From Candidatus Omnitrophota bacterium (lineage in GTDB: Bacteria; Omnitrophota; Gorgyraeia; 2-02-FULL-51-18): a stretch of 64,000 nt of DNA. The stretch spans positions 4,081 to 68,080 of the forward strand of contig JAHFFN010000003.1 of NCBI GenBank assembly GCA_023247915.1, given 5' to 3'. A program made the position numbers and the translations under genes. Within the stretch, counting starts at the first letter, position 1. Every line of letters starts with the position of its first letter. The notes under the pieces were generated by a model. That model worked only from the letters and a program-made list of their open reading frames with translations. It was not told the DNA's origin and made no database searches. Below, piece by piece: positions 6,356 to 62,122 of this stretch.

Positions 6356-6362
6356 GCGAAGT

Positions 6363-19518: not shown

Positions 19519-19620
19519 CAGCACCCCTGGGAGCCGTTATAATAAAGAACTTAAATTTTTATGGGCTCTTTTTGGTCAGTTTTTTAACCTTTTTCAATCA
19601 CCTTTTCTAAGGAGGATACC

Positions 19621-20649
19621 ATGGCAATTCGAGTCGGGATTAACGGGTTTGGACGTATCGGCCGCAACGTATTTCGCGCCGGCGTGAACAACAAAAATAT
19701 TGAATTTGTCGGCGTGAACGATTTGCCGATTCCTTTAGAATCGCATGCGTATCTTTTGAAATACGATTCGATTCTGGGCACTTTCCCGGGGGATATCCGC
19801 GTGGAAGGCGACAACTTGAATGTCAACGGCAAGGCTCTCAAGGTCATGAATTATAAAGACCCTGCGCAGATTCCTTGGGGTGACATGGGCGTCGACATCG
19901 TGATCGAATCGACTGGTGTTTTTACCGATAAAGAAAAAGCCGAAGTGCATATCACCAAAGGCGGCGCCAAGAAAGTCGTTATTTCCGCGCCTGCGAAAAA
20001 TGAAGACATCACCATCGTGCTCGGCGTGAATCAAGACAAATACGATCCCGCCAAGCATCACGTCATTTCCAATGCCTCTTGCACGACCAACTGCTTGGCG
20101 CCTGTCGCCAAAGTGCTGGTGGATCGTTTCGGAATTAAAAGAGGATTGATGACAACCATCCATTCTTATACCAATGATCAGCGCTTGATGGATCTTGGCC
20201 ATAAAGATCTTCGTCGCTCACGCGCCGCGGCTCTTTCCATGATCCCAACTTCAACCGGCGCCGCCAAGGCGATCGGTTTGGTCGTTCCCGAGCTTAAAGG
20301 GAAGATGGACGGCGTGGCGATTCGCGTCCCGACCCCGAATGTGTCTTTAGTGGATCTGACTTGCGAACTCGAAAAAGATACCACCAAGGAAGAAATCAAC
20401 GCCGCGTTCAAAGAATATGCTCAAGGCAAGATGAAGGGCATTTTAGAGTTTTGCGCGGCTCCTTTGGTTTCCAAGGATTTCGCCAATAATCCCGCGTCCT
20501 CGATTGTGGATGCCGAGCTGACCAACGTGATTGATAAGCGTTTCATGAAGGTGTTCAGCTGGTATGACAACGAATGGGGTTATTCCAATCGCGTGGTGGA
20601 TCTTTGCGCATTTATCGGCAAAACATTGCCGGTGATGGCATCCCGCTAA
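19621..20649 (+). CDS. gap: glyceraldehyde-3-phosphate dehydrogenase
   Basis: [12 protein letters not shown] and the active site [12 protein letters not shown]. Confidence 0.95.
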
Positions 20650-47259: not shown

Positions 47260-49676
47260 ATCCTTTTGCATTTTCAGGCCTACTTATAGGAATTTCTTCA
47301 ACGGCGATGGGTGTGTGGGTATTAATGAAAAACTCATCAAGCCCCGTTAATAGACTGTGGGCTATTTTCTGTGTCTCTGTAGCTTTTTGGGGTTTTGGTG
47401 GGTGCGCATTCGGACTTGCCAAAGATGCTAGCTCAGCGCTTCTTTTTTTGAGACTTACCTATGTAGGCGTAATTTTTATACCGGTTCTTTTTTACCATTT
47501 TGTGGTCGTCTTTCTTGAGCTACATCGCCGCAAAAGTCTTGTCGTAGCTTATTTAATAAGCATCATTTTTTTAATGGCTGACGCAACTCCTCTGATGCTC
47601 GGCAATATGACCTGGATGTTTGGACAATTTTATTTTTTATGCCCACCCGGTGTGTTGTACCCATATTTCGTTTTATTTTTTGTGTTTATGACATCCGCAA
47701 GCTTGATTAATTTATGGTATTTTATGAAAAAAATTGAAAATGAACTTCGACGAACTCAGATCAAATGGTTTCTTATGGCAACGGCAATTGGATTTATAGG
47801 GGGTTCAAGCTGCTTCCTGCCTGTTTTTGGAATCAAAATTTACCCTTATGGAAATTTTACAGTTGCCTTATACCCAATAATTATGAGTTACGCCATTATC
47901 AAGCATCAATTGTTAGATATAAAAGTTGTTATCAGAAAAACAATTTTTTATTCTTTGGCGGCATTTCTAACCTCTATCATTTACGTATTCGCAATAGTTG
48001 CTACACATAAAATAATGACAGGTGAGTGGGCCTATCGGTTAGATTTTTTAAATGGTTTAAAAAATTTTCCAAGCCTTTTTACGCTAACCAGCCTCCTATG
48101 CGGACTTTTTTCTTTTGGCTTAGCTATATTTGCAGGCATCACGGGAAAATCTAAAGCTCAAAAATTATTTGCTGCCTTTAATTCAGCGGTAGCTTTATGG
48201 GGATTTGGCAATTTTTTAGCAGGAATTTCCAAGACTCCAGAGACTGCTTTACTATCTTGGCGTGTTGCATATTTTGGTGGGTTTTTTATCAGCACTTTTT
48301 TCTACCACCTAGTCTTAGATTTTTTTGAAATAAAAAATAAAAATATTTTATGGTTCGCCTATCTGCATTCGATTATTTTTTCAGCGTTGATGGCGATTCA
48401 TCCAATCTATTTTTTGAGCAAAATTCGCATGGCTTTCGGAGTGCCATACAATATTGTTACTCCGTGGATGGCCGTCGCCATTTGGATATTTTTAATTTTG
48501 GTTGGACTGAGCTATCGAGAGCTATTGCTTTATCTACAAGCTCCAAAAAATGAAAACAAGACACAAGCAAAATACTTTATTTTTGGTTTTTCGTTTGGAT
48601 TTTTTGGAGGCATGACGACTCTATTGCCTCCATTTGGTGTGGATATTATTTATCCCATTGGAAACTTGGGTGTCGCCATCTATGTCGTAATTCTTCTATA
48701 TGCAATTTTTAGACATCAAATCTTAGATATTCGTATCGTGATACAAAGAACGGCTACGTATACCGTTCTAATTCTTCTGATCTCCATAGCCTACATTTTA
48801 ATAGTATTTGCTGTGCATCGATTTATTCTAGTTGAAAAAATGGTTCATGCGAATTTATTTAGCAACGTTGTTTTGATTCTTTTAATAGCTCTATTCTTAA
48901 AACCCTTGGAAGCATTTTTACGCCGGTACGTCGATAAGAAATTTTTTAAAGGAACTATTCAGGAGATATCGGCACAAAAGGATAAGCTGGAGAGTGAATT
49001 GGAGCGGAGGGAGCGTCTTAAAAGCGTAGGAATTTTGGCTGCTGGTATGGCACATGAGATCAAAAATCCGATCACATCTATCAAGACGTTCACTGAATAT
49101 TTACCGACAAAATATGACGATCCAGAGTTTCGTGAGAAATTCATTCGGATTGTTAGTGATGAGACAGAGAGAATTTCTGGCATTGTCAAGGATCTGCTTG
49201 AATTTTCAAAGCCGTCGGAGCCCAATAAACAATCTTGTGGTCTTAATCAGATTTTATCGGATGTTACAGATCTGCTAGGTGGGGGTATCTTCAAAAAAGG
49301 CATTGAGCTTCAGATGAGCTTTGTCTCGAATCTTCCAAGAGTTTATGTTGACCCATCCCAAGCCAAGCAAGTGTTTCTAAATATCCTTATGAATGCCATG
49401 GACGCGATGACTGGTGAGCGACGCGTTTTACGGATTGAGACAGGCGTGGCTGGTAAGCATGTTTTTGTTGCCGTTGAGGACACAGGCTGTGGCATGTCTG
49501 GAGAAACCAGCAAACATCTTTTCGACCCCTTCTTCACGAACAAAGCAACCGGAACCGGACTTGGTATGGCAATCACTCATTCCCTCATTGAGAAAAACGG
49601 CGGCACGATCCATGTCAGCAGTGACATTGGCAAGGGTAGCCGTTTTGTCGTGCAATTCCCTGTATTCCAAGCTTAA
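47256..49676 (+). CDS. sensor histidine kinase with two tandem multi-TM (7TM-type) input modules
   Basis: ATGA overlap with the previous kinase gene. H-box GMAHEIKNPI, N-box NILMNAMDAM, G-boxes DTGCGM and GTGLGMA. Confidence 0.85.
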   Translation: MNPFAFSGLLIGISSTAMGVWVLMKNSSSPVNRLWAIFCVSVAFWGFGGCAFGLAKDASSALLFLRLTYVGVIFIPVLFYHFVVVFLELHRRKSLVVAYLISIIFLMADATPLMLGNMTWMFGQFYFLCPPGVLYPYFVLFFVFMTSASLINLWYFMKKIENELRRTQIKWFLMATAIGFIGGSSCFLPVFGIKIYPYGNFTVALYPIIMSYAIIKHQLLDIKVVIRKTIFYSLAAFLTSIIYVFAIVATHKIMTGEWAYRLDFLNGLKNFPSLFTLTSLLCGLFSFGLAIFAGITGKSKAQKLFAAFNSAVALWGFGNFLAGISKTPETALLSWRVAYFGGFFISTFFYHLVLDFFEIKNKNILWFAYLHSIIFSALMAIHPIYFLSKIRMAFGVPYNIVTPWMAVAIWIFLILVGLSYRELLLYLQAPKNENKTQAKYFIFGFSFGFFGGMTTLLPPFGVDIIYPIGNLGVAIYVVILLYAIFRHQILDIRIVIQRTATYTVLILLISIAYILIVFAVHRFILVEKMVHANLFSNVVLILLIALFLKPLEAFLRRYVDKKFFKGTIQEISAQKDKLESELERRERLKSVGILAAGMAHEIKNPITSIKTFTEYLPTKYDDPEFREKFIRIVSDETERISGIVKDLLEFSKPSEPNKQSCGLNQILSDVTDLLGGGIFKKGIELQMSFVSNLPRVYVDPSQAKQVFLNILMNAMDAMTGERRVLRIETGVAGKHVFVAVEDTGCGMSGETSKHLFDPFFTNKATGTGLGMAITHSLIEKNGGTIHVSSDIGKGSRFVVQFPVFQA

Positions 49677-49811
49677 AAGCCACCAACCATGCCTCAAAAG
49701 CACAACTTGTGCATTTTTAACAGCTAGTCGGTTAAAAAGCCCAATATCTTGAATAAATTTGTTATATTTAATGATTTTAATAAGTTTTTGATAAAACTTG
49801 ATAAAAAACCA

Positions 49812-49840
49812 TTGACAGAAGATAAGCCAAGATATACAAT
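49812..49840 (+). promoter_or_regulatory. putative sigma70-type promoter TTGACA-N17-TACAAT
   Basis: A near-consensus hexamer pair read directly, about 90 nt upstream of the HTH gene. Confidence 0.55.
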
Positions 49841-49931
49841 GTAATTCCTTTAGCTAGTTTAGCGTTGAGATTGGTTGCAAAAGATGGATTTAAGGAAGTT
49901 TGGGTAAGTATAGATTGGGAGAGATAAGGCC

Positions 49932-50147
49932 TTGGAAGAGCAGGATACAGTTTTCACCGTACAAGAATTAGCTGAATACCTAAGAATGAGACCATTGACA
50001 ATTTATAAACATGCCTCGGCGGGAAAGTTGCCTGGATTTAAGGTTGGATCACATTGGCGTTTCAAGCGGCAAACCATTGATGAGTGGATAAAAAGTCAGG
50101 AGAGAATTGGAACAAAACAGAAAACAGTAATAAGAGGCGAAGGATGA
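49932..50147 (+). CDS. excisionase/MerR-type HTH DNA-binding protein (71 aa, TTG start)
   Basis: FTVQELAEYLRMRPLTIYKHASAGKLPGFKVGSHWRFKRQTIDEWI matches the HTH_17 / excisionase-family pattern. GGGAGAG lies 8 nt upstream. Confidence 0.65.
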   Translation: MEEQDTVFTVQELAEYLRMRPLTIYKHASAGKLPGFKVGSHWRFKRQTIDEWIKSQERIGTKQKTVIRGEG

Positions 50148-50162
50148 GTTTTATGATCCAAA

Positions 50163-51002
50163 TTGGATATTGCTATTAAACTTTACATGAAGTCTTTATT
50201 GAATAATTTAGATAAATTATTATACGAGCGCCTGATTAAGGCTCTTATGTTTTCAAGTCGGCTTGGAAGAAAAAGTACGCTTGGATATGCTGATTCTGGA
50301 ATTAATTTTGATCATATATACCAAAACAAGGCAAAAGGGTATAACAAATTTGGAGTTATTATTGATAGAATTTTATTAAGCCTGCCGGCTTGTAAAGCAA
50401 CCAGAGAGAGGTTTATTACTATAAAAAATATCTTGGAAGACGAAGTTCGGCGCAATATTTCCAAGAACAGAAAAACACGAATAGTTGATCTGGCATCTGG
50501 ACCTGCCAGATATCTTGTTCAATTTATTCCAGAAAAATCAAATCAAATTGAAAGCCTGTGCTTAGACTTAGATAGCCGCGCCTTAAATTTTGGGAAAAAA
50601 ATTTCAGGGGATTCTAGGCCTATTCTATACAGAAAGTGGAATGCTTTAAGGCTTGGCAAGCACCTGAAAAATTTTAGTGTAAAGAGGGAATGGAAGCCGA
50701 ATGTAATTATGGCATCTGGTTTTTATGAGTATCAGCCTGATGATGTGGTTCAAGCCCATTTTTCTAAGACAAAGGAATATTTGGAACATGATGGTTTATT
50801 TTTGGGTGTTTTACAGTTTAAGAATCCAAATAGGAAATTGATAGAAAAAGTTGGTATTCAGAAAAGTGGAAAACGTTGGGTTCTTTTTTATAGATCCCCT
50901 GAGACACTCCATCATTGGATGGTAAAAGCAGGTTATTCTGACATTAGAGTTTTTTCTGATAAATGGAAGCATTATATTTTTTGTTTGGGAAGAAAACCTT
51001 AA
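50163..51002 (+). CDS. class I SAM-dependent methyltransferase-like protein (start uncertain: TTG 50163 or ATG 50187)
   Basis: The motif I-like string is RIVDLASGPARYL, followed by an acidic loop (CLDLD) and a downstream Rossmann-like pattern. Confidence 0.6.
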   Translation: MDIAIKLYMKSLLNNLDKLLYERLIKALMFSSRLGRKSTLGYADSGINFDHIYQNKAKGYNKFGVIIDRILLSLPACKATRERFITIKNILEDEVRRNISKNRKTRIVDLASGPARYLVQFIPEKSNQIESLCLDLDSRALNFGKKISGDSRPILYRKWNALRLGKHLKNFSVKREWKPNVIMASGFYEYQPDDVVQAHFSKTKEYLEHDGLFLGVLQFKNPNRKLIEKVGIQKSGKRWVLFYRSPETLHHWMVKAGYSDIRVFSDKWKHYIFCLGRKP

Positions 51003-51048
51003 GGATTTTATTTATAGTATAAAAGGGAAATGGATTTAATAATTCATT

Positions 51049-52311
51049 ATGAGCAAGAAGAGGCGTGTTGTAGTTACAGGAATGGGTATAGTAGCCCCGA
51101 ATGGCGTGGGTCGAGCAGACTTTACGAGGGCCATTTTTTCCGGAAAATCTGGGTTATCGTGGTTTGCATCACCAAAAGAAGAAAGACCGCGGATCCCTAG
51201 AGTGGTTGGGAGAGTGGAATCATTCGACCCAGCTAATTTTTTACCTTCTGCGGTTATTCGAAAGACAGATAGATTTGTTCACTTGGGCTTGGTTGCGACA
51301 AAACTAGCCCTGGAAGATGCTAAGATACAAATAAACAGTCATTATTTAGAAAATGCATCGATAATTTTAGGTTCGGGTCAGGGTGGGCTTATTTTTCACG
51401 AGCAGACGATAAAAAACTATATCGAGTCAAATGGAACAAAGAAACCTTCGGCCAGTTCTGTTCCAAGGATTACCTCAAATGCTGTAACGGCATACATTGC
51501 CATGGAATATCAAATCAAAGGTTTAAACCAAGTGATTTCAACTGCCTGCTCATCCGGAGTCCAGGCCATTGGCCAAGCATTTAGAAGTATCCAATTTGGG
51601 GTAAGTGACTTGATATTAACCGGTGGGGTAGAGGCGCCTATTGGTCCCGTTATGCTAGATATGTACGGTTCAATGATGGTACTGGGGAATCCAATTGGGG
51701 ACGATCCTTCTACTGCTTCTAGGCCATTTGACAAAACAAGAGACGGATTTGTTTTAAGTGAAGGCGCGGCCATTCTTATTTTAGAAGATCGGGAAAAAGC
51801 TTTGCAACGAGAAGCGCCTATCTATGCAGAGATAATAGGTTTTGGTTCAAATTGTGGAGCCTATCATATGGTTACACCAAATCCAAATGGTGATGACGCG
51901 GCGCTTGCAATGTTGGCGGCGATTAAAGATGCAGACATAGATTTAAAGAGTATCGATTATATCAGTGCGCATGGAACCGCCACAAAGCAAAATGATTTAG
52001 CTGAGACCAATGCGATTAAAAACCTTTTTGGCGATAAAGCAAAAACTATTCCAATTAGTGGATTGAAATCGATGATAGGGCATTCAATAGGCGCGGCCGG
52101 GGCGATTGAAGTGGTAGCTAGCTGCATAGCTATTTGTGAAGAGTTGCTTCCACCAACTATTAATTTAAATAATCCTGATTCTGGATGTGATTTAGATTAT
52201 GTAGCCAATATAGCAAGAAAGAAAACCATACGAACTGTTCTAAAAAATTCTTTTGGGTTTGGTTCAAATAACGCAACTTTAATTTTAAGGGATGCGCGAT
52301 ATGAAAAATAA
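51049..52311 (+). CDS. beta-ketoacyl-ACP synthase (KAS I/II type, Cys-His-His)
   Basis: VVVTGMGIVAPNG, active-site Cys in STACSSG, and His residues in SAHGTAT and IGHSIGAAG. Confidence 0.9.
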   Translation: MSKKRRVVVTGMGIVAPNGVGRADFTRAIFSGKSGLSWFASPKEERPRIPRVVGRVESFDPANFLPSAVIRKTDRFVHLGLVATKLALEDAKIQINSHYLENASIILGSGQGGLIFHEQTIKNYIESNGTKKPSASSVPRITSNAVTAYIAMEYQIKGLNQVISTACSSGVQAIGQAFRSIQFGVSDLILTGGVEAPIGPVMLDMYGSMMVLGNPIGDDPSTASRPFDKTRDGFVLSEGAAILILEDREKALQREAPIYAEIIGFGSNCGAYHMVTPNPNGDDAALAMLAAIKDADIDLKSIDYISAHGTATKQNDLAETNAIKNLFGDKAKTIPISGLKSMIGHSIGAAGAIEVVASCIAICEELLPPTINLNNPDSGCDLDYVANIARKKTIRTVLKNSFGFGSNNATLILRDARYEK

Positions 52312-52591
52312 TCAGCAGATTAGTCGTGATGAAGTCTTCGATGGTGTTCTGATTGTCTTGTCTAGCATACTGGATGGCAAGGAAGCTAAAATTGTTCCAA
52401 AGAATAACATAACCTGGGATACCGATATATATGATGATTTGGGAATTGATTCTTTAGAAAGTTTAGATTTTCTTTCCGGGCTAGAAGAGAGGTTTAAGGT
52501 GAATCCGGATCAATACGAAGCCAATGATAAGAGAAAAGTATCAGAAATTGTGGACTATATCTTAAAACTAGCTAATGAAAAACCTGCATAG
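52301..52591 (+). CDS. acyl carrier protein
   Basis: The phosphopantetheine site is LGIDSLESLDF. The ATG at 52301 has AAGGGA 8 nt upstream and overlaps the KAS end by 11 nt. Confidence 0.8.
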   Translation: MKNNQQISRDEVFDGVLIVLSSILDGKEAKIVPKNNITWDTDIYDDLGIDSLESLDFLSGLEERFKVNPDQYEANDKRKVSEIVDYILKLANEKPA

Positions 52592-52612
52592 ACTTCTCGG
52601 GGGACATAGAAT

Positions 52613-53416
52613 TTGTTAAATAACATGAATAATAAATTCAGGGCAATACAGGTTGAAGAGCTGGAGGGGGGTGCTTTGTGGCGCCTTCAAATTAATAATC
52701 CACCAGTCAACTTGTTAACTATTAAAATTATTGATGAGATTGCTGGGTGCATAGATTTGTTCGGTCAAAGCAGGCAGGCTAGAGTACTGGTATTTACGAG
52801 TGGGCTAGAAAAATTTTTTATAGCAGGAGCTGACCCAGAAGAAATAAACTCTATCTCTTCTCCGGAAGATGGGTTCGTAACAGCTAAAAGAGGCCAAGAT
52901 CTTTGTAGCAAGATAGCGGCATTAGAGAAACCGGTAATTGCTGCTATTGACGGCGCCTGCATTGGCGGGGGGAATGAAATCGCAATAGCGTGCCATATGC
53001 GCATTGCTTCCGACAAAGCTGTTTTTCAACAACCAGAAATACATTTAGGTATTATTCCAGCTTTTGGGGGAACTCAGAGGCTGGGTCGGTTAATTGGCGA
53101 ATCTAGGGCAAAAAAAATGATTTTGACGGGTGAAAAAATTAGTGCAAAGGATGCGCTACTATTTGGTTTAATTGATCAATTAGTCAGCGAGAGAAGCGCT
53201 TTGGATGAGTCTCTTAGAATTGCCAGAGTAATGTTATCAAAGAGTCCCACTGCAATCAAATTGGCTTTTAAAGCTTTGAATAAGGGGGCAGCACTTTCAT
53301 TGAGCGATGGATTGGCTATTGAATTAGAGTGTTTTAGAGAAGTATGCAAAAACAGTAACATGAAAGAGGCTTTAAATGCTTTCAAGGAAAGGCGCAGGCC
53401 AATTTTTGAACCATGA
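52613..53416 (+). CDS. enoyl-CoA hydratase/isomerase (crotonase) family protein
   Basis: FIAGADPEEI, the oxyanion/Glu context ACIGGGNEIAIACH, and the second Glu in QPEIHLGIIPAFGGTQRL. Confidence 0.85.
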   Translation: MLNNMNNKFRAIQVEELEGGALWRLQINNPPVNLLTIKIIDEIAGCIDLFGQSRQARVLVFTSGLEKFFIAGADPEEINSISSPEDGFVTAKRGQDLCSKIAALEKPVIAAIDGACIGGGNEIAIACHMRIASDKAVFQQPEIHLGIIPAFGGTQRLGRLIGESRAKKMILTGEKISAKDALLFGLIDQLVSERSALDESLRIARVMLSKSPTAIKLAFKALNKGAALSLSDGLAIELECFREVCKNSNMKEALNAFKERRRPIFEP

Positions 53417-54108
53417 TAAATCGCACTAGAAAAATACAGGGTCTTGTATGCTTTGGAGATAGTATCTTCGCTGGGACAGGGGCTTCCGATCGTCAAATTG
53501 GAAGTGCAAAATTAATAAAAAATATTTTGACAATTCCTGTGTCCTTGCAAGGACGAAACAGAGATACAAGCGAGATGGCTATTCGCAGACTTGAAAAAGA
53601 CATCCTTTCTCTCGGGAAAGAGTACACACAAGTGATCGTGTTGCTAGGTAATAATGATTGCTGGTTAGATACTAATGGTGAGCCACGCATAACCTTGGAA
53701 ACTTTTGAAGCAAATATGGTGCGTATCATTAATTTAATTCAAGCAAACGGCAGAGAAGCTATAATTTGCAATCTTCAACCAATTCACGACAAAAATTTTT
53801 TAATTACATTTCCAGAGTATCAAGATTTTTTTAAAAAGAGTAAATTCAAACCTACAGAATTGCAAGAGGTTTATAGTAATAAAATAGAAAACATTTGCAA
53901 AAAATTTAATTTAGTTATGATAGATATAAGAGAAGAGTTTCTTGATTCAGCAGGAACTTTAATGGCGGATGACGGAATCCATCCCAATGACTTAGGACAT
54001 AAAAAAATTGCCAAAAAGATAATATCTACCTTGGGCAAATTGGATATTTCGCTGTTGGGAAGTGGTTTAAAAATTGAGTCCTCTGATTGGATTGGTAGGC
54101 ACGCATGA
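53413..54108 (+). CDS. SGNH/GDSL hydrolase (TesA-like esterase/thioesterase fold)
   Basis: Block I is VCFGDSIFAG, block III is LLGNNDC, and block V is DGIHPNDLGH. There is a 4-nt overlap with the crotonase gene. Confidence 0.8.
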   Translation: MINRTRKIQGLVCFGDSIFAGTGASDRQIGSAKLIKNILTIPVSLQGRNRDTSEMAIRRLEKDILSLGKEYTQVIVLLGNNDCWLDTNGEPRITLETFEANMVRIINLIQANGREAIICNLQPIHDKNFLITFPEYQDFFKKSKFKPTELQEVYSNKIENICKKFNLVMIDIREEFLDSAGTLMADDGIHPNDLGHKKIAKKIISTLGKLDISLLGSGLKIESSDWIGRHA

Positions 54109-56234
54109 CTTTATACATCGTTACAACAGGCTTAACGGCTGTGTTATTTTTTTTAGTAGGCTTTTTTGTGTATCTTCAAAATCCAAAATCAGAGCTCTAC
54201 TTAAGGTGTTTTGTTTTTAGTAATTCAGTCGCTCTGTGGGCGCTTGGGTATTTTATTACATTAATACAGGTGTTTAATTATGATTACACGTTACTCATTA
54301 GTAGGGCTTCTCACGCATGCGGAGCGATTATACCGATCGCATATTATCATTTTGTTATGGCGTTATTAAAAAAGCCAGGAAATCCAAAATTTTTAAAATT
54401 AGGATATTTAATTTCCATAGCAATGTCTGTTATGTCATTCTCGCCTTGGGTAGTCAAAGCGTTATTGCCAAAAATGGATATTCAGCTTTATCCCGAATGG
54501 GGTGTTTTATACCCCCTTTATACAAGTCTATTCGTTGTCTATCCCGGCTATGCGCATTATCGAATGCTTCCTGAGATTAAAAGGCTCCATGGGACAGAAA
54601 GGACGCGTTTAATATATTTCTTTGTTGCTTTGGCGCTAGCCTTTGCAGGCGGCATATCGCTGTTTTTTTTAATATTCAATGTTCCGTTCCCCCCTTATTT
54701 TAGTGTTTTTATAATTTTGTATCCTCCAATGATGGCGTACACAATACTTGTGCATAAATTCATGGATATAGAAGTTATTGTAAGGCGTACAGCAGTTTTC
54801 GCAGGCCTTTTTGCTTTCGTTTACGGCGTATTTACAACTGTAACAATTTTAGGCCAAGAATTTTTCATGAATTTTCTAGGCTGGAACCAATGGACAGCAA
54901 TGATACCCACTGTATTCATTATTACTTTCTCTCTTCGCCCCCTAGAAATATTTTTGACAAATACCACTGAGAAATTTTTATTTCAGAAAAAATATGACTA
55001 TCGCGAACTTCTTAGAACTTTTACTAATGAGACTCTCACCGTTTTAGATTTGCAGAAGCTGATGGATCAAACCGTAGCGGGATTGATCAAGATCATGAAG
55101 CTCGAAGCTGCTGCAGTCTTGCTATTTGATAAGGATGAAAAAAAATATAAATTTATGGCGGGATCTGGGATAAAGGATAAGCAGATCGTTTTTGATGACA
55201 GCGACACGGTTATTGCTTATCTAAAGAAAACCCATCAGCCAATCGCGAAGGATAAGGCAGCGGATAAGATTGAGGGAAATAGCCTTCTTAAAGATAATTT
55301 TGCTAAGTTGAATGCGAGACTTTGCTTGCCGATCACACTCCACGAAGAACTGATAGGGGTTCTGTGTCTAGGCATGAAAAAATCTGGAGAGGACTATACC
55401 CAGGAAGATATAGACATCTTAACCACGCTTGCTCGCACAGAAGCGATCGCTATTTCTAACGCCCAGCTTTTCGATGAGCTTTCAAAGACTCAGGCAGAAG
55501 CTGCTCAGCGAGAAAAGATGGCGGTGATTGGGACGCTGGCAGCAGGAATTAATCACGAGATTTGCAATCCTCTTGGGATTGTCCGTGGGCAATGCGAAAT
55601 GTTTCTTCTGAACTTTAGAGATGGGTTCTACAAATCAAAATCTCAAGATGAGGTTTTGGCGATCGCATCGGATGTGATGGGAAAGGTAATCAAAGAAACA
55701 GATCGGGCAACGGCAATCACCAAAAAGCTTTCAAGTTTTGCCAAGCCATCCAAACGCTCGGAGTTTGAAGAGGTGCATGTAGATAAAGAAGTCGATGAAG
55801 TCTTGGGGTTAGTTGGGCATGATTTGCAACTTAATAATATTGCTGTTAGTAAAAATTTTACAGAAAATTTCCCTGCCATATTGGCTGATAGGAAACAAGT
55901 TCAGGAGGTTCTGTTTAATATTATTCGAAATGCTGCTCAAGCTATGGATAAAAAGGCGGGCACGATACAAGTTTCGGGCGCTGTTCAAACTGAAATGGCC
56001 GTTATTCGTATCGCTGACAACGGTTCGGGGATCCCTAAGGATAAGCTCGAACAGGTTTTTCATCCTTTCTACACGACCAAAGAACCTGGGAAGGGCACGG
56101 GTCTCGGACTTTTTATTGTTAAGCAGGTGGTTGAGCGCAATAAGGGCTCTATCCAGGTTGAAAGCGAGCAGGGCGTAGGGACAACATTTACTCTTAAGTT
56201 TCCCTTAACTGAAAAAATGGCAGCGGTGGCCTAA
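54105..56234 (+). CDS. sensor histidine kinase: one multi-TM (7TM-type) module, then GAF, HisKA and HATPase domains
   Basis: ATGA overlap with the SGNH gene. There is a GAF-like region (LMDQTVAGLIKIMKLEAAAVLLFD...LCLPITLHEELIGVLCLG). H-box AAGINHEICNPL; G-boxes DNGSGI and GTGLGLF. Confidence 0.85.
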   Translation: MTLYIVTTGLTAVLFFLVGFFVYLQNPKSELYLRCFVFSNSVALWALGYFITLIQVFNYDYTLLISRASHACGAIIPIAYYHFVMALLKKPGNPKFLKLGYLISIAMSVMSFSPWVVKALLPKMDIQLYPEWGVLYPLYTSLFVVYPGYAHYRMLPEIKRLHGTERTRLIYFFVALALAFAGGISLFFLIFNVPFPPYFSVFIILYPPMMAYTILVHKFMDIEVIVRRTAVFAGLFAFVYGVFTTVTILGQEFFMNFLGWNQWTAMIPTVFIITFSLRPLEIFLTNTTEKFLFQKKYDYRELLRTFTNETLTVLDLQKLMDQTVAGLIKIMKLEAAAVLLFDKDEKKYKFMAGSGIKDKQIVFDDSDTVIAYLKKTHQPIAKDKAADKIEGNSLLKDNFAKLNARLCLPITLHEELIGVLCLGMKKSGEDYTQEDIDILTTLARTEAIAISNAQLFDELSKTQAEAAQREKMAVIGTLAAGINHEICNPLGIVRGQCEMFLLNFRDGFYKSKSQDEVLAIASDVMGKVIKETDRATAITKKLSSFAKPSKRSEFEEVHVDKEVDEVLGLVGHDLQLNNIAVSKNFTENFPAILADRKQVQEVLFNIIRNAAQAMDKKAGTIQVSGAVQTEMAVIRIADNGSGIPKDKLEQVFHPFYTTKEPGKGTGLGLFIVKQVVERNKGSIQVESEQGVGTTFTLKFPLTEKMAAVA

Positions 56235-56240
56235 CGCTTT

Positions 56241-56630
56241 ATGCCAAAACTTTTGAGTATTGACGATGAGGTGGAATTTACTAATTTGATGCAAAACTAC
56301 TTTGGGCCGAGAGGGTATGAGGTATTTGTCGCTAATCAGGGAGATTCGGGTCTGGTTATTGCTAAACGCGAAAAGCCGGATGTTTGTTTAATTGATCTTA
56401 AAATGCCCGGGCTTCACGGGGATGATGTTTTGAGAGAGATTCTGTTGGATCAACCGGACGCCAAATGTATTATGATTACAGCATCTGAAGGCGAAGGAAA
56501 AACCCGAGCGAAGCTTATGAAAATGGGAGCCTTCACGACATTTGATAAACCGGTAACATCGCTCAAAGATTTGGAAGAAAAGGTGAGGCAAGCCTTGGCT
56601 AGTCGTATGAACGGAGAAAAAAATGGGTAA
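56241..56630 (+). CDS. single-domain response regulator (receiver only)
   Basis: The acceptor Asp is in DVCLIDLKMPG, with Thr in MITASEG and Lys in FDKPV. Confidence 0.85.
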   Translation: MPKLLSIDDEVEFTNLMQNYFGPRGYEVFVANQGDSGLVIAKREKPDVCLIDLKMPGLHGDDVLREILLDQPDAKCIMITASEGEGKTRAKLMKMGAFTTFDKPVTSLKDLEEKVRQALASRMNGEKNG

Positions 56631-57009
56631 AGCTCCTAAGCTTCTTGTGGTGGATAATGAGCTAGACATTTGTAATTTTGTGAAATCTTTTTTTGAAATG
56701 CGTGGATTTCAAGTCACGACGGCACTGAACGGTGATGATGCGATGGCGAAGCTTGCATTAGTGCAGCCGGATATAGTGATCCTGGATGTGGTGATGCGTC
56801 GCGAGACTGAAGGGATTGAGTATCTTCCAAAAATCAAGCAGGCGATGCCGAATGTCCGTGTGATCATGGTTACTGGTGTTGACGACAAAGATACCGTTGA
56901 GAAAGCCAAGCAGTTGGGCGCGGACGACTATATTACGAAGCCTCTGGTGTTGGAGTATCTGGAGGGAACGGTGCTTGGGAAGATAAAGAGCTTGGAAAAT
57001 GTTAGATGA
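56623..57009 (+). CDS. single-domain response regulator (receiver only)
   Basis: The acceptor Asp is in DIVILDVVM, with Thr in MVTGVDD and Lys in ITKPL. There is an 8-nt overlap with the preceding gene. Confidence 0.85.
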   Translation: MGKAPKLLVVDNELDICNFVKSFFEMRGFQVTTALNGDDAMAKLALVQPDIVILDVVMRRETEGIEYLPKIKQAMPNVRVIMVTGVDDKDTVEKAKQLGADDYITKPLVLEYLEGTVLGKIKSLENVR

Positions 57010-57030
57010 AGATCCTTCGCTTCGCTCAGG

Positions 57031-58260
57031 ATGACTGTGTATAGCCGCTTAGACTACCAGGAAGCCCTTTTAAACGCCTCCAAAGGCATGATCCGGGTTA
57101 AAGACCCGATCACCTTGCTTAAAATTATCACACGTTTCATTGATCGCCAGATCGGTGTTACGCATGTAGGAATTCTCCTTTTTGATCGTCTTAAAGATTC
57201 CTATGTTCTAATCGACAGTAAAGGCGAGGGCGGCGTTAAGATCCCCGTTGGCTATATCCGCGTCACTAAAAATAACCCGCTTGTCACTTTCTTTGTCGCT
57301 TCTAATAATAGCGCATTTGATCGGAAAGAAGCACTGGTATACAGCGAGCTTAAGCACCTTCAGAACTTTGAAATATTTGTGAATAAAAAAGAAGGCCGAG
57401 CGATCCACTACGAAGATATTCAAAAGCAGATGGATTATTTTCGTGCCTCGGTTTGCGTGCCAAGTTTTTATAAGCGCGAGCTGATAGGTGTTCTGATCCT
57501 TGGTGAAAAGCTATCAGGAGAAAAATATTTCGAAGAAGAAATTAATCTTTTTGTGACATTGGCCAATGACGTGGCCATGGCCGTCAAAAATGCGGAACTT
57601 ATTAAAGATCTAAAAATCGCTTATGACAAAGAGCACAATCTTTTTATCCAGACCTCGGTAGCTCTTGCGACGGCTATCGACGCTAGAGATCGTTATACGC
57701 ATGGCCATTCAGAGCGCGTATCGCATTACAGCCTTGTCATTGCCAAAGAGTTGATTGATGAGGGAAAAATTGAATACGATCGTGAATTTATGGAGACAGT
57801 ACAGTTATCCGCTTTGCTTCATGACATTGGAAAGATAGGTATTCGGGACAATATTTTAAACAAACCAGATAAGCTCACCACGGAAGAGTTTGAAATCATG
57901 AAAACCCATGTGGCGATCGGCGGAAGCATCTTAAAGCCGGTGGATGGGCTGACACATCTGGCAGACGGTATCTTGTATCATCATGAGAGATTTGATGGGA
58001 AGGGCTACCCGCATGGCTTGAAAGGCAAGGACATCCCAATTATCGGACGTATCGTGAACGCAGCCGACTCATACGATACGATCGTAACGGCTCGTGCTTA
58101 TAAGGCTTCTTCCGCGTCAGAGGATGCGTTTAAGGAGCTTATCCGGTGCAAGGGCAGCCAGTTTGACCCTGAAATCGTCGATGCATTCTATAATGCCTAT
58201 AAAGCCGGAAGACTAACTAAGAGGGAATACACTAGCTACGATTTTTCAAAATTACACTAA
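57031..58260 (+). CDS. GAF domain / HD-GYP domain protein (predicted c-di-GMP phosphodiesterase)
   Basis: HGHSERV, LLHDIGKIG and HHERFDGKGYPHGL (the HD-GYP signature). The N-terminal region is GAF-like. Confidence 0.85.
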   Translation: MTVYSRLDYQEALLNASKGMIRVKDPITLLKIITRFIDRQIGVTHVGILLFDRLKDSYVLIDSKGEGGVKIPVGYIRVTKNNPLVTFFVASNNSAFDRKEALVYSELKHLQNFEIFVNKKEGRAIHYEDIQKQMDYFRASVCVPSFYKRELIGVLILGEKLSGEKYFEEEINLFVTLANDVAMAVKNAELIKDLKIAYDKEHNLFIQTSVALATAIDARDRYTHGHSERVSHYSLVIAKELIDEGKIEYDREFMETVQLSALLHDIGKIGIRDNILNKPDKLTTEEFEIMKTHVAIGGSILKPVDGLTHLADGILYHHERFDGKGYPHGLKGKDIPIIGRIVNAADSYDTIVTARAYKASSASEDAFKELIRCKGSQFDPEIVDAFYNAYKAGRLTKREYTSYDFSKLH

Positions 58261-59869
58261 TTTCAGTTCCTGCTCCCAGTTTACTTTTTACTTCCATTTT
58301 CCCGCCATGCTTGCTGATAATGCTGTGAACGATTGATAAGCCAAGGCCAGTTCCTTCTTCCTTTGTAGTGAAGAAGGGATCAAAGAGGTGGGAGATGTTT
58401 TCTTTTGGAATGCCCACGCCGGTATCCGAAATAATAATCATCGAATCTGAAATACTCACAGTTAAGGTGCCGCCGTCCGGCATGGCTTGTATGCTATTTA
58501 GGAAGAGATTCAAAAAAGCTTGGCGGAGTTGATTTTTATCAACCAGCAGAGTTATGTCTCTTGAATATTTTTTAACAAGCTCGATTTTATTTTTTAGTAA
58601 ATTATTACCAAGTAAGCTCAGCGTATCATCCAAAATTGAAGCCATTGAACAAGGTTTAAGCTCAAGCTCCTGAGGTTTGGAAAATTCTAGAAGTTGCTTC
58701 ACAATATTATTAACCCGATCGACTTCATCCACGACAATTTTCTTGAATTTCTCTCTAAATCCAGGATCATCATATTTTTCAGGGAGGTATTCCGCAAAGG
58801 TTTTGATAGAGGTGAGTGGGTTTTTAATCTCATGCGCCATCCCAGCCGCCAGCGTTGCCACGGTTTTCATTTGTTCGGTTTTCTGTACTTCTTGAATCAG
58901 ACGATCATTTTCTTTTTGCAATTCCTCAGGAGTCTTTTTGAAAATAAGCAGGTCAACGAAACTTTGAATTTTTCTTTCCAGGGGCTTAAAGAGAAGCGTT
59001 ATGACCGTTAATATTAATAAAATAACAGGAGCAGAATGAGCTTTCGCTAATCCCCCAACAAAAGTGGCGGTCAAATAGACGATAGTAAAGTATAACGTGG
59101 CAATGATTGAAACTAATATCGAATAGGCCAAACTTTTTCGAATGACGATGGAAATTCCCATTACGCCATGCCGAAATATTCCGTACATAGTAAAAGTGAC
59201 AAAGAGCACTGCAAATATACAGCCCACCGGAAAAAAATCAATTCCCCAGTTATGAAGAAAATCAGAGCTTCCGCAGGTGACAAATATCATTGCTAAAAAT
59301 AAATATTTTATCTCGTGGTATCTGTTAGTTTTTCCATGCTCATTTCGGACGACAGTTAGCGCAAGATGCAGTAAATGAATTGCATAAAACGCTGTACCTA
59401 GCACAAACGTAGTGTGGATAGCGTGAAACACGCCGCCTTTTGGATAGAATCCCCAAGAATAATTGTATGTGCCAGATATAAAGCTATTACTAGTCCACAC
59501 AAGAACTAAAAAGACAAAAGTGAATGAATAAGCGATTATTAGGTCACGTTTCAGGGGTTTTGACTTTAGCTCATTCTTAACAAAGGATGTCGCAAAATGC
59601 AGGGCAAGCGTTGGCATAAATACAACGCCGGTATAAACCCATCTGCCCAAGACAAGAGATGTATGATCAGAGAATAATTTGGACGATAAAAGAGATATCG
59701 AGAAAAGCCAGATGCAAATTGCTATACAAAAATAAAAGTAAAGTTGATTTGTGAGGTTTTTGTGATTTTTAGTTAAGACGAATATGCCTTGCGAAAGACA
59801 CACAACTCCACAAAAGAACGTTAAGACCGAATAGAATGGTAGATGTGAAGGCGTAATTGAGAGCGTCAT
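58232..59869 (-). CDS. sensor histidine kinase with one multi-TM (7TM-type) input module
   Basis: H-box GMAHEIKNPLTSIKTFAEYLPEKYDD, N-box NLFLNSIQAM, G-boxes DTGVGI and GTGLGLS. Confidence 0.85.
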   Translation of the reverse strand: MTLSITPSHLPFYSVLTFFCGVVCLSQGIFVLTKNHKNLTNQLYFYFCIAICIWLFSISLLSSKLFSDHTSLVLGRWVYTGVVFMPTLALHFATSFVKNELKSKPLKRDLIIAYSFTFVFLVLVWTSNSFISGTYNYSWGFYPKGGVFHAIHTTFVLGTAFYAIHLLHLALTVVRNEHGKTNRYHEIKYLFLAMIFVTCGSSDFLHNWGIDFFPVGCIFAVLFVTFTMYGIFRHGVMGISIVIRKSLAYSILVSIIATLYFTIVYLTATFVGGLAKAHSAPVILLILTVITLLFKPLERKIQSFVDLLIFKKTPEELQKENDRLIQEVQKTEQMKTVATLAAGMAHEIKNPLTSIKTFAEYLPEKYDDPGFREKFKKIVVDEVDRVNNIVKQLLEFSKPQELELKPCSMASILDDTLSLLGNNLLKNKIELVKKYSRDITLLVDKNQLRQAFLNLFLNSIQAMPDGGTLTVSISDSMIIISDTGVGIPKENISHLFDPFFTTKEEGTGLGLSIVHSIISKHGGKMEVKSKLGAGTEISVILKNRS

Positions 59870-61464
59870 AATGTGGTTTTGAAAGCCAAAGTAAATATTG
59901 CGCCTTTTTCTGGGGCGTTGGAAGCGGTTATTTTCCCGCCATGCTCCTCTATAATTCCATGAACAATGGATAGGCCGAGTCCAGTACCCCCATCCTTAGT
60001 TGTAAAAAAAGGTTCAAAGATATATTTCAGGTTTTCTCTGGGAATGCCATTTCCGGTGTCTGCGATCGAAATTTCTAGAAGGTTAGAATTATTTTTTGTT
60101 GTAATGGAAAGTGCGCCACCATTAGGCATAGCCTGAATAGAATTTAAAAAAAGATTTAGAAGGATTTGTCGGAGTTGTTTTTTATCGCCGCTTAACAGCG
60201 AATTTGAAGCAATATAACTTTTTTCAAGATGAATGTCATACTTGACAAGCTCACCATTTAAAAAATTTAAAGTTTCATCGATAAGTTTATGTAGCTCAAC
60301 TTTCTCAAGCTGAAGAGGGGAGGGCTTAGAAAATTCAAGTAATTGGCGAACCGTACCGTCAATACGATCAACCTCGGCACCAACGATGCTGATAAATTGT
60401 TTTATAAACTCGGGATCATGATGCTTTTTAGTCAAATGTTCGGTGAAAGTTTTGATCGCAGTTAACGGATTTTTAATCTCATGTGCCATTCCTGCAGCCA
60501 AAGTTGATACAGCCCTCATCTGATCTTTTCCTCGAATCTCAGCGGTCAATTTTTGATTTTCTTTTTTTAACATTTCAGCTGTTTTTTTAAATATAAGAAG
60601 ATCAACCAGTTCTTGAATTTTTCTTTCAATGGGTTTGAAGAAGAGAGCAATGACAGTAAATAGCAGTATAGTAAATGGCAATGATTTGTAGCCCATATAG
60701 TTTTGGAATAGAGTACCAACCGAATAAACTAGAAAAAAATAAAATGTAGTAATAACCCCGATAAGGAATGAATAAATTAAACCCTGCCGAACAAGGATGT
60801 TGATATCCATTAACCGATGCTTCACAATCGCATACGAAATAATCGCTACGTAAATCCAAACAAAGTGAAGCGTTGTAGGATTGATAGGAATCTTATAAAC
60901 AAGAAGAAATGCAGCATCTCCCGTTATAAAGCCAATAACCGTGGCTACAATGATGTACTTAATCTGATTTTTTTTATCGGCGGATAGATGCTTTAAGTTT
61001 TTGAATAGTAAGTATTCCGAGTAAATAGAATAAAAAATAAAATGAAATAAGTAATAATGAAATAAAGGCCCCGGGTCAGCATAATATTTGAATATAGAAA
61101 TAGATCGCACGGTTTCAAAGTATGGTGTAAATCCTAGAATAGTAATCAAAATAATATTGGCGTAGCCCAATTTGAGAAGAAGATTATTTTTTATTTCTTG
61201 GTATGTAATGGCTAGAGAGAAATGGGTGAAGAAAACAGGGATGAAGCTAGCGGTGACATTGCAAAGCCTGCTAAAAAGTAAGCCGTCATCGTAATTGGTT
61301 GCAAAAAATGAACGCCAAATAAAAAAGCTCCAGGCCGTAACTGATAAGGACATCAAAAACCAAGTTTGATTTATGATGTTTTTTGGATTTTTATAAAGAA
61401 CGAAGATACCAAGTGACAGCGCTGAAATAAACGTAAGGGGTAGGCTATAAAAATAGGGCTGCAT
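59866..61464 (-). CDS. sensor histidine kinase with one multi-TM (7TM-type) input module
   Basis: H-box GMAHEIKNPLTAIKTFTEHL, N-box NLFLNSIQAM, G-boxes DTGNGI and GTGLGLS. There is a 4-nt overlap with the downstream kinase gene. Confidence 0.85.
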   Translation of the reverse strand: MQPYFYSLPLTFISALSLGIFVLYKNPKNIINQTWFLMSLSVTAWSFFIWRSFFATNYDDGLLFSRLCNVTASFIPVFFTHFSLAITYQEIKNNLLLKLGYANIILITILGFTPYFETVRSISIFKYYADPGPLFHYYLFHFIFYSIYSEYLLFKNLKHLSADKKNQIKYIIVATVIGFITGDAAFLLVYKIPINPTTLHFVWIYVAIISYAIVKHRLMDINILVRQGLIYSFLIGVITTFYFFLVYSVGTLFQNYMGYKSLPFTILLFTVIALFFKPIERKIQELVDLLIFKKTAEMLKKENQKLTAEIRGKDQMRAVSTLAAGMAHEIKNPLTAIKTFTEHLTKKHHDPEFIKQFISIVGAEVDRIDGTVRQLLEFSKPSPLQLEKVELHKLIDETLNFLNGELVKYDIHLEKSYIASNSLLSGDKKQLRQILLNLFLNSIQAMPNGGALSITTKNNSNLLEISIADTGNGIPRENLKYIFEPFFTTKDGGTGLGLSIVHGIIEEHGGKITASNAPEKGAIFTLAFKTTL

Positions 61465-61515
61465 TTATATCGTAAGCCGATTAGTCCAATGTCAGACGAA
61501 TGGCATAGTAATTCA

Positions 61516-61902
61516 TTACTTCTTGGCGGCTTCTTGGAGTGTCTGAGAGATGGAGCGGAGGACGTGTTTGGAGTCGAAAGGTTTCGGGATGTAATCGGCA
61601 GCACCGTTACGGAGGGCTTCTTGGGCGGTTTCGACGCTTTGGTAGCCGGTGACGATAATGACGGGGAGCTTGGGCTTCAGCGCTTTGACTTGTTTTAAAA
61701 TCTCCATTCCATGGAGTTTGGGCATCTTGATGTCGAGTAGCATTAAGTCCGGTGTGAAGGACTTTAAGAGCTCTAAAGCATCGAGGCCGTTTTTAGAAAA
61801 TTTGAGGGAGTAGTTGTCCTCGAGAATTAATTTGAAAGATTCGCGAATACCTTCTTCGTCGTCGCAAACAAGAATGGTAGGTTTGTGCGTTTCGGACGCC
61901 AT
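61516..61902 (-). CDS. single-domain response regulator (receiver only)
   Basis: The acceptor Asp is in DLMLLDIKMP, with Thr in IIVTGYQS and Lys in YIPKPF. AGGAGG lies upstream on the minus strand. Confidence 0.85.
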   Translation of the reverse strand: MASETHKPTILVCDDEEGIRESFKLILEDNYSLKFSKNGLDALELLKSFTPDLMLLDIKMPKLHGMEILKQVKALKPKLPVIIVTGYQSVETAQEALRNGAADYIPKPFDSKHVLRSISQTLQEAAKK

Positions 61903-62024
61903 GAGACCCTCCTAGGTTTAACGATAGTCTAGCCTATCATTGATGAATATTCAAATTTTTTAACGACCTCCCAGAGGCATTTATTCAGCATTGTTAAGCT
62001 TTACTTAATCCCGCTTAAATAAAT

Positions 62025-62077
62025 ATTGAATAAAAATCAAATTAAAATTTGACAAATAAACATTCAACGTGTACTCT
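62025..62077 (+). promoter_or_regulatory. putative promoter (TTGACA 62049-62054, N17, TACTCT) with the upstream near-palindrome TTGAATAAAAATCAA
   Basis: I read it directly. The string atttgacaaataaacatt is nearly identical to the one upstream of the giant gene. Confidence 0.4.
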
Positions 62078-62122
62078 TGAATTCATCACAGTTGTCGGGC
62101 ATATTTCGGAGTACTGAAATTT

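Follow-up and report, generated by a model that had tools for sequence, protein, structure and literature searches.

A candidate lipid-signalling locus of Omnitrophota with a PF12147 methyltransferase, a seven-transmembrane sensor kinase and a predicted c-di-GMP output

Organization of the operon

We analyzed a stretch of 64,000 nucleotides (nt) of a Candidatus Omnitrophota bacterium (contig JAHFFN010000003.1, positions 4,081 to 68,080; in the following the window) and in it an operon of ten open reading frames (ORFs), all on the + strand from 49932 to 58260, which encodes enzymes of fatty-acyl type together with a sensor histidine kinase, two receivers and an HD-GYP protein. The original prediction, made from the letters alone, had seen here a minimal fatty-acyl biosynthesis set fused to signalling genes, and possibly a lipid signal that feeds into the turnover of cyclic diguanylate (c-di-GMP). 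ORFs, domains and motifs bear out ten same-strand genes with tight or overlapping junctions, and the Pfam assignments of the products all exceed the curated cut-offs. The features of the operon are:

49812..49840, +: sigma-70-type promoter TTGACA-N17-TACAAT, 11/12, ~92 nt 5' of the first ORF
49932-50147, +: small DNA-binding protein, HTH_17 (excisionase/MerR-like; PF12728, E=7.5e-16)
50163-51002, +: class I S-adenosylmethionine (SAM)-dependent methyltransferase (MT) of the small Pfam family PF12147 (Methyltransf_20)
51049-52311, +: FabF-like beta-ketoacyl-ACP synthase II (KAS), Cys-His-His-Lys intact
52292-52591, +: divergent dedicated acyl carrier protein (ACP; PP-binding) with DSL motif
52613-53416, +: crotonase-fold enoyl-thioester hydratase/dehydratase (ECH_1), both catalytic Glu present
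53413-54108, +: cytoplasmic SGNH/GDSL hydrolase (Lipase_GDSL_2) with GDS (residue ~15) and DxxH, no signal peptide
54105-56234, +: sensor histidine kinase (HK); seven-transmembrane (7TM) domain ~aa 1-290, GAF ~aa 300-460, dimerization and catalytic domains (DHp/CA) aa 461-709; H-box intact
56241-56630, +: single-domain receiver (REC) 1 (PF00072, E=2.3e-20)
56623-57009, +: single-domain receiver 2 (PF00072, E=5.3e-24)
57031-58260, +: predicted c-di-GMP phosphodiesterase, GAF and HD-GYP (HD_5, PF13487, E=1.4e-30)

The crotonase and SGNH genes overlap by 4 nt (ATGA), as do the SGNH and kinase genes (ATGA), and the two receiver genes overlap by 8 nt. The predicted overlap of 11 nt between the KAS and ACP genes holds when the ACP starts at ATG 52301; with ATG 52292 it becomes 20 nt. 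Every other junction of the operon is a gap of 6-46 nt. The genes are presumably coupled in translation and transcribed as a single transcript. No convincing internal terminators were detected in the operon, the terminator-like matches being at the level of shuffled sequence, and a search of positions 43000-62500 with Rfam gave no RNA element and so no c-di-GMP riboswitch.

The near-consensus promoter expected ahead of the operon is well placed. It is the top promoter-like site within 18.5 kb, and the sole large intergenic gap (255 nt) holds it on the correct strand. The number of such motifs is not above chance (2 sites with at least 11/12 in the 64-kb window vs 1.1 +/- 1.0 simulated), whereas a chance site on the correct strand inside the 255-nt gap would be expected only ~0.002 times. 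The promoter is thus supported by its position and not by the motif count. Far upstream, at 19515-19543 (+) and just 5' of the ORF 19621-20649, there is a perfect 12/12 sigma-70 consensus (TTGACA-N17-TATAAT), the only promoter match in the window which is better than that of the operon.

Properties of the encoded proteins

For the methyltransferase the start at ATG 50187 is the more likely one, and the protein is found in the database in both a 271-aa and a 279-aa form. Its predicted structure has a pLDDT (predicted local distance difference test) of 92. The fold neighbours of this model in the Protein Data Bank (PDB) are small-molecule and not protein methyltransferases; the uncharacterised Bordetella protein 3OCJ ranks first, followed by assorted natural-product methyltransferases, and we therefore cannot derive a specific function from the fold. 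A sequence search of the PDB with the methyltransferase profile gave generic class I matches only (best E=0.0015), no NCBIfam model was matched, BioC included, and distant members of PF12147 carry generic names only, with no match named PhcB. We propose that the methyltransferase is the signal synthase.

The KAS scores 453 bits with TIGR03150, below the equivalog cut-off of 493.75, and 447 bits with the subfamily model PRK07314, above its cut-off of 387; it is probably a FabF-like paralogue and not the housekeeping enzyme. The ACP reaches 36.7 bits with TIGR00517, below the cut-off of 70.45, and therefore is not the housekeeping AcpP. Within the 64-kb window there is no second MT, KAS, ACP, crotonase or SGNH hydrolase, and neither a housekeeping fabF nor acpP.

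The original prediction had compared the crotonase with RpfF, the synthase of the diffusible signal factor (DSF). When the crotonase was considered as a DSF synthase of the RpfF clade, canonical short-chain enoyl-CoA hydratases came out as its best relatives in the PDB (E=2.7e-49), with DspI at 2e-29 and RpfF not among the best 60 matches. An RpfF-like role was thus not borne out: the enzyme is of the canonical hydratase type and is dispensable in the family, being missing from most related cassettes. The SGNH hydrolase is proposed to act as a thioesterase or esterase; in relatives an alpha/beta-hydrolase, separate or fused, takes its place.

The proposed receptor is the kinase of the operon. 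Besides its transmembrane (TM) region it has GAF, HisKA and HATPase domains according to Pfam, without REC or HPt. Its description as a 7TM kinase draws on hydropathy and on homology to PF16927 (HisKA_7TM) kinases, from which the multi-TM N-terminus was called, and is not matched by a Pfam call, as PF16927 is not found in this protein at E<=0.01. The kinase can be aligned with the four HisKA_7TM kinases that flank it, at E-values as low as 5e-29, and most of its orthologues at 40-56% identity do carry PF16927. An assignment as PrsK (TIGR02916) was rejected with 149.9 bits vs a cut-off of 300, only the TM-GAF-HK architecture being in common. In the translation of the last gene the HD-GYP motifs LHDIGK and HHERFDGKGYP (YHHERFDGKGYP) can be read, the latter satisfying the signature HHExxDGxGYP. 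This protein is of the GAF type and not of the REC type, as the Pfam domains confirm, and judged by its sequence it is the likely output of the system.

Conservation among related loci

We compared the operon with ~22 related loci, nearly all from metagenome-assembled genomes of Omnitrophota (labels L for loci and P for proteins). The neighbourhoods were taken from the longest contigs and from GTDB genomes, and all proteins of the window were mapped onto them. Twenty distinct loci have a recognisable methyltransferase and enough flank; L029, which is truncated, and L031, whose methyltransferase is divergent, were counted apart. The PF12147 family around the window methyltransferase is small, comprising 46 clusters (90% identity) in a set of 5.8 billion proteins; among 1.84 billion representatives there are ~25 matches at E<1e-54 and 62 at E<1e-30.

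A full-length homologue of the 7TM-GAF sensor adjoins the methyltransferase on the same strand in 20/20 loci, whose methyltransferases are 37-64% identical to that of the window. The sensor lies 3' of the methyltransferase in all of them but L010, where the contig ends at the methyltransferase. The linkage also holds in L031 with its divergent PilZ-MT (hhalign 97.8%, E=1.2e-12). The HTH_17 protein is a probable regulator of the operon; its gene recurs 5' of the cassette in most related loci, and the protein is 72-76% identical in L011, L013 and L031. The enzymes found with the methyltransferase, on the other hand, vary:

KAS-ACP-ECH-SGNH: window, L005, and L029 as far as its contig reaches
FabK-like reductase and SGNH: L001, L003 (also KAS-ACP), L007, L008, L009, L015, L016, L021
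KAS alone, divergent, catalytic residues intact: L011, L012, L014
SGNH alone: L006, L022
no enzyme between MT and sensor: L013
alpha/beta-hydrolase, adjacent or fused: L024, L027, P0051, P0053
alpha-oxoamine synthase, fused or adjacent: L025, L012, L013

The defining core is the PF12147 methyltransferase with the 7TM sensor, and KAS, ACP, crotonase and SGNH hydrolase are one of several interchangeable accessory sets. The catalytic components that stay constant seem to be the methyltransferase and a hydrolase of the esterase/thioesterase type. Of the original claim, the linkage of lipid enzymes to signalling genes was found in every related locus with sufficient flank (the 20 as well as L029 and L031); the fatty-acyl set as the defining partner did not stand.

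By family, all accessory enzymes of the relatives act on acyl-thioesters or lipids. Crotonase and FabK-like reductase alternate in the same slot and both use 2-enoyl thioesters. The alpha-oxoamine synthase domain of the type found in L025, L012 and L013 reaches 378 bits with TIGR00858 (bioF cut-off 426) and 211 bits with the autoinducer-synthase model (cut-off 428). Other accessory proteins are a PlsC-like acyltransferase, an SRPBCC (Polyketide_cyc) protein, a FadL channel and a REC-ACP fusion. PF12147 proteins outside the clade are fused to a lysophospholipase-like hydrolase, a PlsC-type acyltransferase or a CDP-alcohol phosphatidyltransferase. The accessory enzymes, these wider fusions and the fold neighbours together argue for a lipid-type small-molecule substrate of the methyltransferase. 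Two to five paralogous 7TM sensors are encoded per locus.

Some relatives show further peculiarities. The receiver-ACP fusion (PF00072 and PF00550; L021, 5589-6398) directly follows the 7TM-GAF kinase and suggests an acyl-carrier chemistry controlled by phosphorylation. L029, which encodes the closest homologue of the window kinase, has after HK-REC a protein of 1848 aa (3689-9235) with a C-terminal Peptidase_C39-like domain. In L015 the methyltransferase match (9714-10519) is split over two overlapping frames (9714-10148 and 10124-10519), either as a frameshifted pseudogene or by an assembly error. A protein of ~550 aa, in which a Polyketide_cyc/SRPBCC domain, a family that we take to be lipid-binding, is combined with a Shikimate_DH-like NAD(P) domain, lies near the cassette in L001 (5315-6946), L027 (12193-13860), L009 and L016; in L001 and L016 the PlsC-like acyltransferase stands beside it.

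Co-variation of enzymes and sensor domain

The contig of L031 also carries an Asd gene whose product is 84% identical to the Asd of the window, and we therefore regard L031 as the orthologous region of a related species. The frame of this region is 42-78% identical overall (HTH 76%, HK 61%, REC1 78%, REC2 67%, HD-GYP 76%, downstream REC 72%). It has no counterpart of MT-KAS-ACP-ECH-SGNH; instead there are a 320-aa protein without Pfam match (7408-8370, between the HTH gene and the PilZ-MT) and the divergent PilZ-MT. In L001 an unannotated protein of 336 aa occupies the same position as this 320-aa protein. We read the locus as a replaceable biosynthetic cartridge inside a conserved chromosomal signalling frame.

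Within the kinase, identity differs from domain to domain. The values for the kinases of relatives are as follows:

L031 (different cartridge): 7TM 42%, linker and GAF 72%, DHp and CA 74%
L029 (same ECH-SGNH cartridge): 7TM 67%, linker and GAF 63%, DHp and CA 41%
L011, L012, L014 (KAS alone): 7TM 32-34%, linker and GAF 45%, DHp and CA 57-63%

Over 15 loci (105 pairs) the identity of the methyltransferases is correlated with that of the 7TM domains (Spearman rho 0.42, Mantel p~0.02) and is uncorrelated with that of the GAF domains (rho 0.14) or kinase cores (rho -0.03). The 7TM domain co-varies with the cartridge of enzymes, while the remainder of the kinase goes with the chromosomal frame. A pattern of this kind is known from agr, whose agrBDC variable region evolves together and separately from agrA (PMC8768832), and from Phc, where PhcB and PhcS group by signal type (PMC8578825).

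Connection to c-di-GMP

The tail of the operon, REC-REC-GAF/HD-GYP, recurs in L011, L012, L014 and L031. Two loci, L024 and L008, encode HisKA_7TM, GAF and HD-GYP domains in one protein, so that kinase and receivers are bypassed. The N-terminal part of the L024 fusion aligns with the sensor of the window kinase (E=1e-62), and its C-terminal part matches the GAF/HD-GYP protein of the window over the full length (40% identity, E=6e-87). Because of these alignments kinase and receivers of the operon can be understood as relay steps that connect one and the same sensor to one and the same output. In both loci the gene of a FadL-family outer-membrane channel is placed after the HTH gene and before that of the methyltransferase.

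A PilZ domain is found at the N-terminus of seven methyltransferases; five are from the close family, one is the divergent protein of L031 and one is its triple fusion with a hydrolase. The PilZ-MT fusions include P0010, P0025, P0047, P0048, P0053 and L031, and in P0010 and P0025, whose sequences were read directly, the RxxxR and NxSxxG motifs are intact. Moreover a GAF-GGDEF gene adjoins the cassette in L003. The proposed link of the locus to c-di-GMP is reinforced by the 7TM-GAF-HD-GYP fusions, the PilZ-MT fusions and this GGDEF neighbour.

Surroundings of the operon

Housekeeping genes extend to ~32.8 kb in the window. The GC content falls from 0.49 (1-32000) to 0.40 in the signalling region (44692-61464), and the low-GC part is ordered as RHS-repeat protein, two OmpW-like barrels, two double-HisKA_7TM kinases, the operon and a convergent REC-HK-HK unit. 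Around the operon lie:

32939-41458, +: RHS-repeat protein of 2839 aa (PF05593, E=1.5e-71; weak fn3 match)
43478-44083 and 44154-44834, +: two OmpW-like (OMP_b-brl) outer-membrane beta-barrels, directly 5' of the double-7TM kinases
44692-47259 and 47256-49676, +: two paralogous kinases with two tandem HisKA_7TM modules each, part of the conserved signalling frame
58232..61902, -: convergent unit of REC (61516-61902), HK (59866-61464) and HK (58232-59869), both kinases HisKA_7TM

The RHS-repeat ORF opens the low-GC region and is followed by two ORFs without Pfam match (41443-42225 and 42687-43454); a polymorphic toxin accompanied by genes for immunity or accessory functions is a possible interpretation. 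A search with PADLOC for a known anti-phage defence system gave generic HTH, REC, HATPase and HD matches only. OmpW-type barrels carry hydrophobic molecules, and the two barrels may for this reason fill the role which FadL has in L008 and L024. As a passage for a hydrophobic molecule they are a possible component, and their membership in the system is uncertain.

The two upstream kinases have ~14 TM segments ahead of HisKA/HATPase, and the two genes share 4 nt at the stop codon of the first and the start codon of the second; we know of no description of such a duplicated 7TM sensor. L031 has an orthologue of them (49% identity) and also the convergent REC-HK-HK unit (42-72% identity). At their 3' ends the HD-GYP gene and the convergent kinase gene have 29 nt in common (58232-58260), so that the two units must either run into each other when transcribed or terminate in a common bidirectional region.

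The Asd of the window is 75-84% identical to proteins of Candidatus Omnitrophica/Omnitrophota, and in several related genomes Asd and a kinase homologue are on one contig. Since both stay linked, the low-GC block looks like a variable region which is stable and fixed in the chromosome, and not like a recently acquired island.

Discussion

By analogy of function the nearest counterparts of the locus are probably Phc and DSF, and it would be a member of neither family. The Phc signal is methyl 3-hydroxymyristate or methyl 3-hydroxypalmitate. In the Ralstonia solanacearum complex the phcBSRQ genes have the order methyltransferase, histidine kinase, receiver, receiver, and synthase and sensor co-vary with the signal type (PMC8578825). 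The operon of the window likewise combines a methyltransferase, a sensor kinase and two receivers without DNA-binding domain in one operon and in the same order (PhcB was compared by description only). In Phc a SAM-dependent methyltransferase is the fatty-acid methyl ester synthase, the role which we propose here. In contrast to Phc, there are four extra enzyme genes (KAS, ACP, crotonase, SGNH) between methyltransferase and kinase, the sensor is of the HisKA_7TM-GAF type, the output is GAF/HD-GYP instead of the LysR regulator PhcA, and the host phylum is Omnitrophota, whereas Phc is found in Betaproteobacteria. With the DSF system of Xanthomonas (RpfF/RpfC/RpfG) the locus shares a fatty-acid-derived signal, here proposed, a crotonase-fold enzyme and a membrane sensor kinase tied to an HD-GYP phosphodiesterase; the DSF signal lowers c-di-GMP. 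RpfC, however, is a hybrid kinase with REC and HPt, neither of which the window kinase has, RpfG is a REC-HD-GYP protein, whereas here the HD-GYP carries GAF and the receivers are separate proteins, and the invariant enzyme is here the methyltransferase.

More distant parallels exist as well. In agr of staphylococci the genes that make the signal are inherited and diverge as a unit together with the membrane sensor domain of the kinase, and the cytoplasmic part of the kinase and the remaining locus follow the genome (PMC8768832), but the agr signal is a peptide, the proteins are non-homologous and the output is a transcription factor. CqsA/CqsS, of the CAI-1 system, and LqsA/LqsS have an alpha-oxoamine synthase that uses acyl-thioesters beside a polytopic kinase, as is seen in L012, L013 and L025. 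The window, in contrast, has no alpha-oxoamine synthase, the sensor families differ and the domain of the relatives is below the autoinducer-synthase cut-off.

Taking all this together we think it rather more probable than its opposite, by no great measure, that the locus makes a signal of the fatty-acyl methyl ester type, senses it and lowers c-di-GMP. In such a scheme the dedicated ACP and KAS would elongate an acyl chain, while primary metabolism would supply malonyl-ACP, ketoreduction and phosphopantetheinylation. The crotonase would process the chain at the 2-enoyl/3-hydroxy stage, and the cytoplasmic SGNH hydrolase would free the acid from the ACP. The methyltransferase would then cap the acid, most likely as carboxyl methyl ester, to give a neutral, membrane-permeant lipid. 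This lipid could partition into membranes and, where FadL/OmpW-type barrels are present, cross the outer membrane through them; the uptake of long-chain acyl-homoserine lactones is mediated by FadL (PMC9938287). The 7TM domain of the downstream kinase would bind the lipid in the membrane, phosphotransfer via the two receivers would activate the GAF/HD-GYP protein, and c-di-GMP would fall. In relatives the PilZ domain on the methyltransferase might close a feedback loop from c-di-GMP. Alternatively methylation might come first, as in BioC/BioH, an order which would fit the gene order and the BioF-like fusion. The chemistry of the product, its identity with the ligand, a possible action between cells and the route of the phosphorelay are inferences.

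A number of observations weigh against such a signal. The cartridge contains no ketoreductase, malonyl transferase, phosphopantetheinyl transferase or exporter, and the crotonase is of the canonical and not of the RpfF-like type. The methyltransferase could be a C- or N-methyltransferase or could act first like BioC. A feedback loop through PilZ-MT fits homeostasis as well as autoinduction. The sensor clade comprises at least 358 clusters vs ~46 for the recognisable methyltransferase family, and because it is so much larger some sensors may work without the methyltransferase. Finally, the 7TM segment lies nearer to the methyltransferase than the rest of the kinase, so that part of the co-variation could reflect recombination distance. 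The idea of a lipid signal feeding into c-di-GMP turnover thus gains from the synteny and the c-di-GMP links and loses through the crotonase and the variable enzyme set. The wider proposal, that Omnitrophota have modular lipid autoinducers of their own, in which PF12147 cartridge and receptor 7TM domain are exchanged as pherotypes with c-di-GMP as readout and PilZ feedback, is put forward tentatively, and we lean slightly to the side of doubt.

The main rival holds that the enzymes serve a feedback-controlled remodelling of membrane or envelope lipids, by methylating or trimming a membrane lipid, and that the 7TM kinase senses the state of the bilayer and tunes c-di-GMP, which in relatives would act back on the methyltransferase via PilZ; this we consider unlikely, though it deserves serious attention. 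Operons of enzyme and sensor are known (des-desKR, pmrCAB), and DesK, which senses the bilayer state beside des, resembles the kinase described here as a polytopic sensor without extracytoplasmic domain next to a lipid-modifying enzyme. The fusions of wider PF12147 members to PlsC, CDP-alcohol phosphatidyltransferase and lysophospholipase-like hydrolase, the PilZ-MT fusions, which suit a homeostatic loop, and the lack of an exporter in the operon agree with it. DesK, however, acts on des transcription via DesR, whereas here the output is c-di-GMP and not the transcription of the enzymes. Furthermore the enzymes are swapped between related species along with the sensor domain while the frame is kept, which would be unusual for core membrane homeostasis, and the co-variation of 7TM domain and methyltransferase suggests specific recognition rather than sensing of a bulk property. 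The FadL channels that the cassettes of L008 and L024 contain and the two to five paralogous 7TM sensors per locus also speak against remodelling. A specialised-metabolite cluster for an antagonistic or host-directed lipid, whose sensor reads an unrelated cue and whose enzymes do not make the ligand, would account for the variable and modular enzyme content, which resembles secondary metabolism, for the low-GC variable region beside a toxin-like RHS giant protein and for the defence and mobile genes near loci of relatives; Omnitrophota have also been proposed to be host-dependent (PMC10066038). We nevertheless judge it quite improbable: the output is c-di-GMP hydrolysis and most loci have no DNA-binding response regulator, co-variation of the 7TM domain with the enzymes would not be expected for an unrelated cue, and enzymes and sensor are under one promoter, so that the enzymes are not obviously downstream of the sensor.

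Two further explanations start from the methyltransferase. It might mask a carboxyl group of a primary metabolite, such as a cofactor or building block, in the manner of BioC/BioH, where methyltransferase and esterase bracket steps of the fatty-acid-synthase type, with the kinases nearby by coincidence. Masking of, for instance, malonyl-ACP would let KAS and the reductase or hydratase lengthen a dicarboxylate, and the hydrolase would afterwards cleave off the methyl ester. The order MT, KAS, ACP, ECH/FabK, hydrolase indeed mirrors the reaction order from BioC to BioH. BioG-BioC fusions are known, MT-hydrolase fusions occur in PF12147 relatives, and in one relative the methyltransferase is fused to the BioF-like alpha-oxoamine synthase (378 bits with TIGR00858). 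This domain is, however, below the bioF cut-off of 426, the methyltransferase belongs to a different Pfam family, PF12147, and matches no NCBIfam model including BioC, and bioA, bioB and bioD were not found near any examined locus. As this explanation also gives no reason why every locus is strictly linked with a 7TM sensor and with c-di-GMP parts, we hold it to be very unlikely, although carboxyl-masking chemistry could form part of a signal pathway. Least probable of all, with hardly any weight in our judgement, is an adaptation system like CheR/CheB, in which the methyltransferase would methylate the adjacent sensor and the hydrolase demethylate it. It would explain why the methyltransferase is always beside the sensor and why an esterase-type hydrolase is usually present, and the PilZ-MT of L031 has a very weak match to the CheR SAM domain (E=0.05). 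But the fold neighbours are small-molecule methyltransferases and not CheR, the wider PF12147 family is fused to lipid enzymes, and there is no role in protein methylation for KAS, ACP, crotonase, FabK-like reductase, alpha-oxoamine synthase or FadL.

In the searchable literature we found nothing comparable to a locus of methyltransferase cartridge and 7TM sensor. No paper there mentions PF12147 or Methyltransf_20, HisKA_7TM appears in two census papers only and without a ligand assignment, and the main Omnitrophota paper makes no mention of such systems. PF12147 is without known substrate and HisKA_7TM without known ligand, and their pairing in the locus suggests both at once. If the wider proposal of modular autoinducers is true, HisKA_7TM sensors would gain their first ligand class and PF12147 its first function. 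Even if lipid remodelling should be true instead, a 7TM sensor and c-di-GMP loop over lipid methylation would still be new. A real pairing of cartridge and receptor domain would constitute a lipid counterpart to agr, in which synthase and receptor domain are swapped together and wired to c-di-GMP instead of transcription. The wider proposal, if true, would also give the first cell-cell or cell-host signalling system in these ultra-small, apparently host-dependent bacteria. As it is debated whether Omnitrophota are free-living or host-dependent, a signal of their own making would offer direct evidence for behaviour in this phylum that is social or directed at a host.

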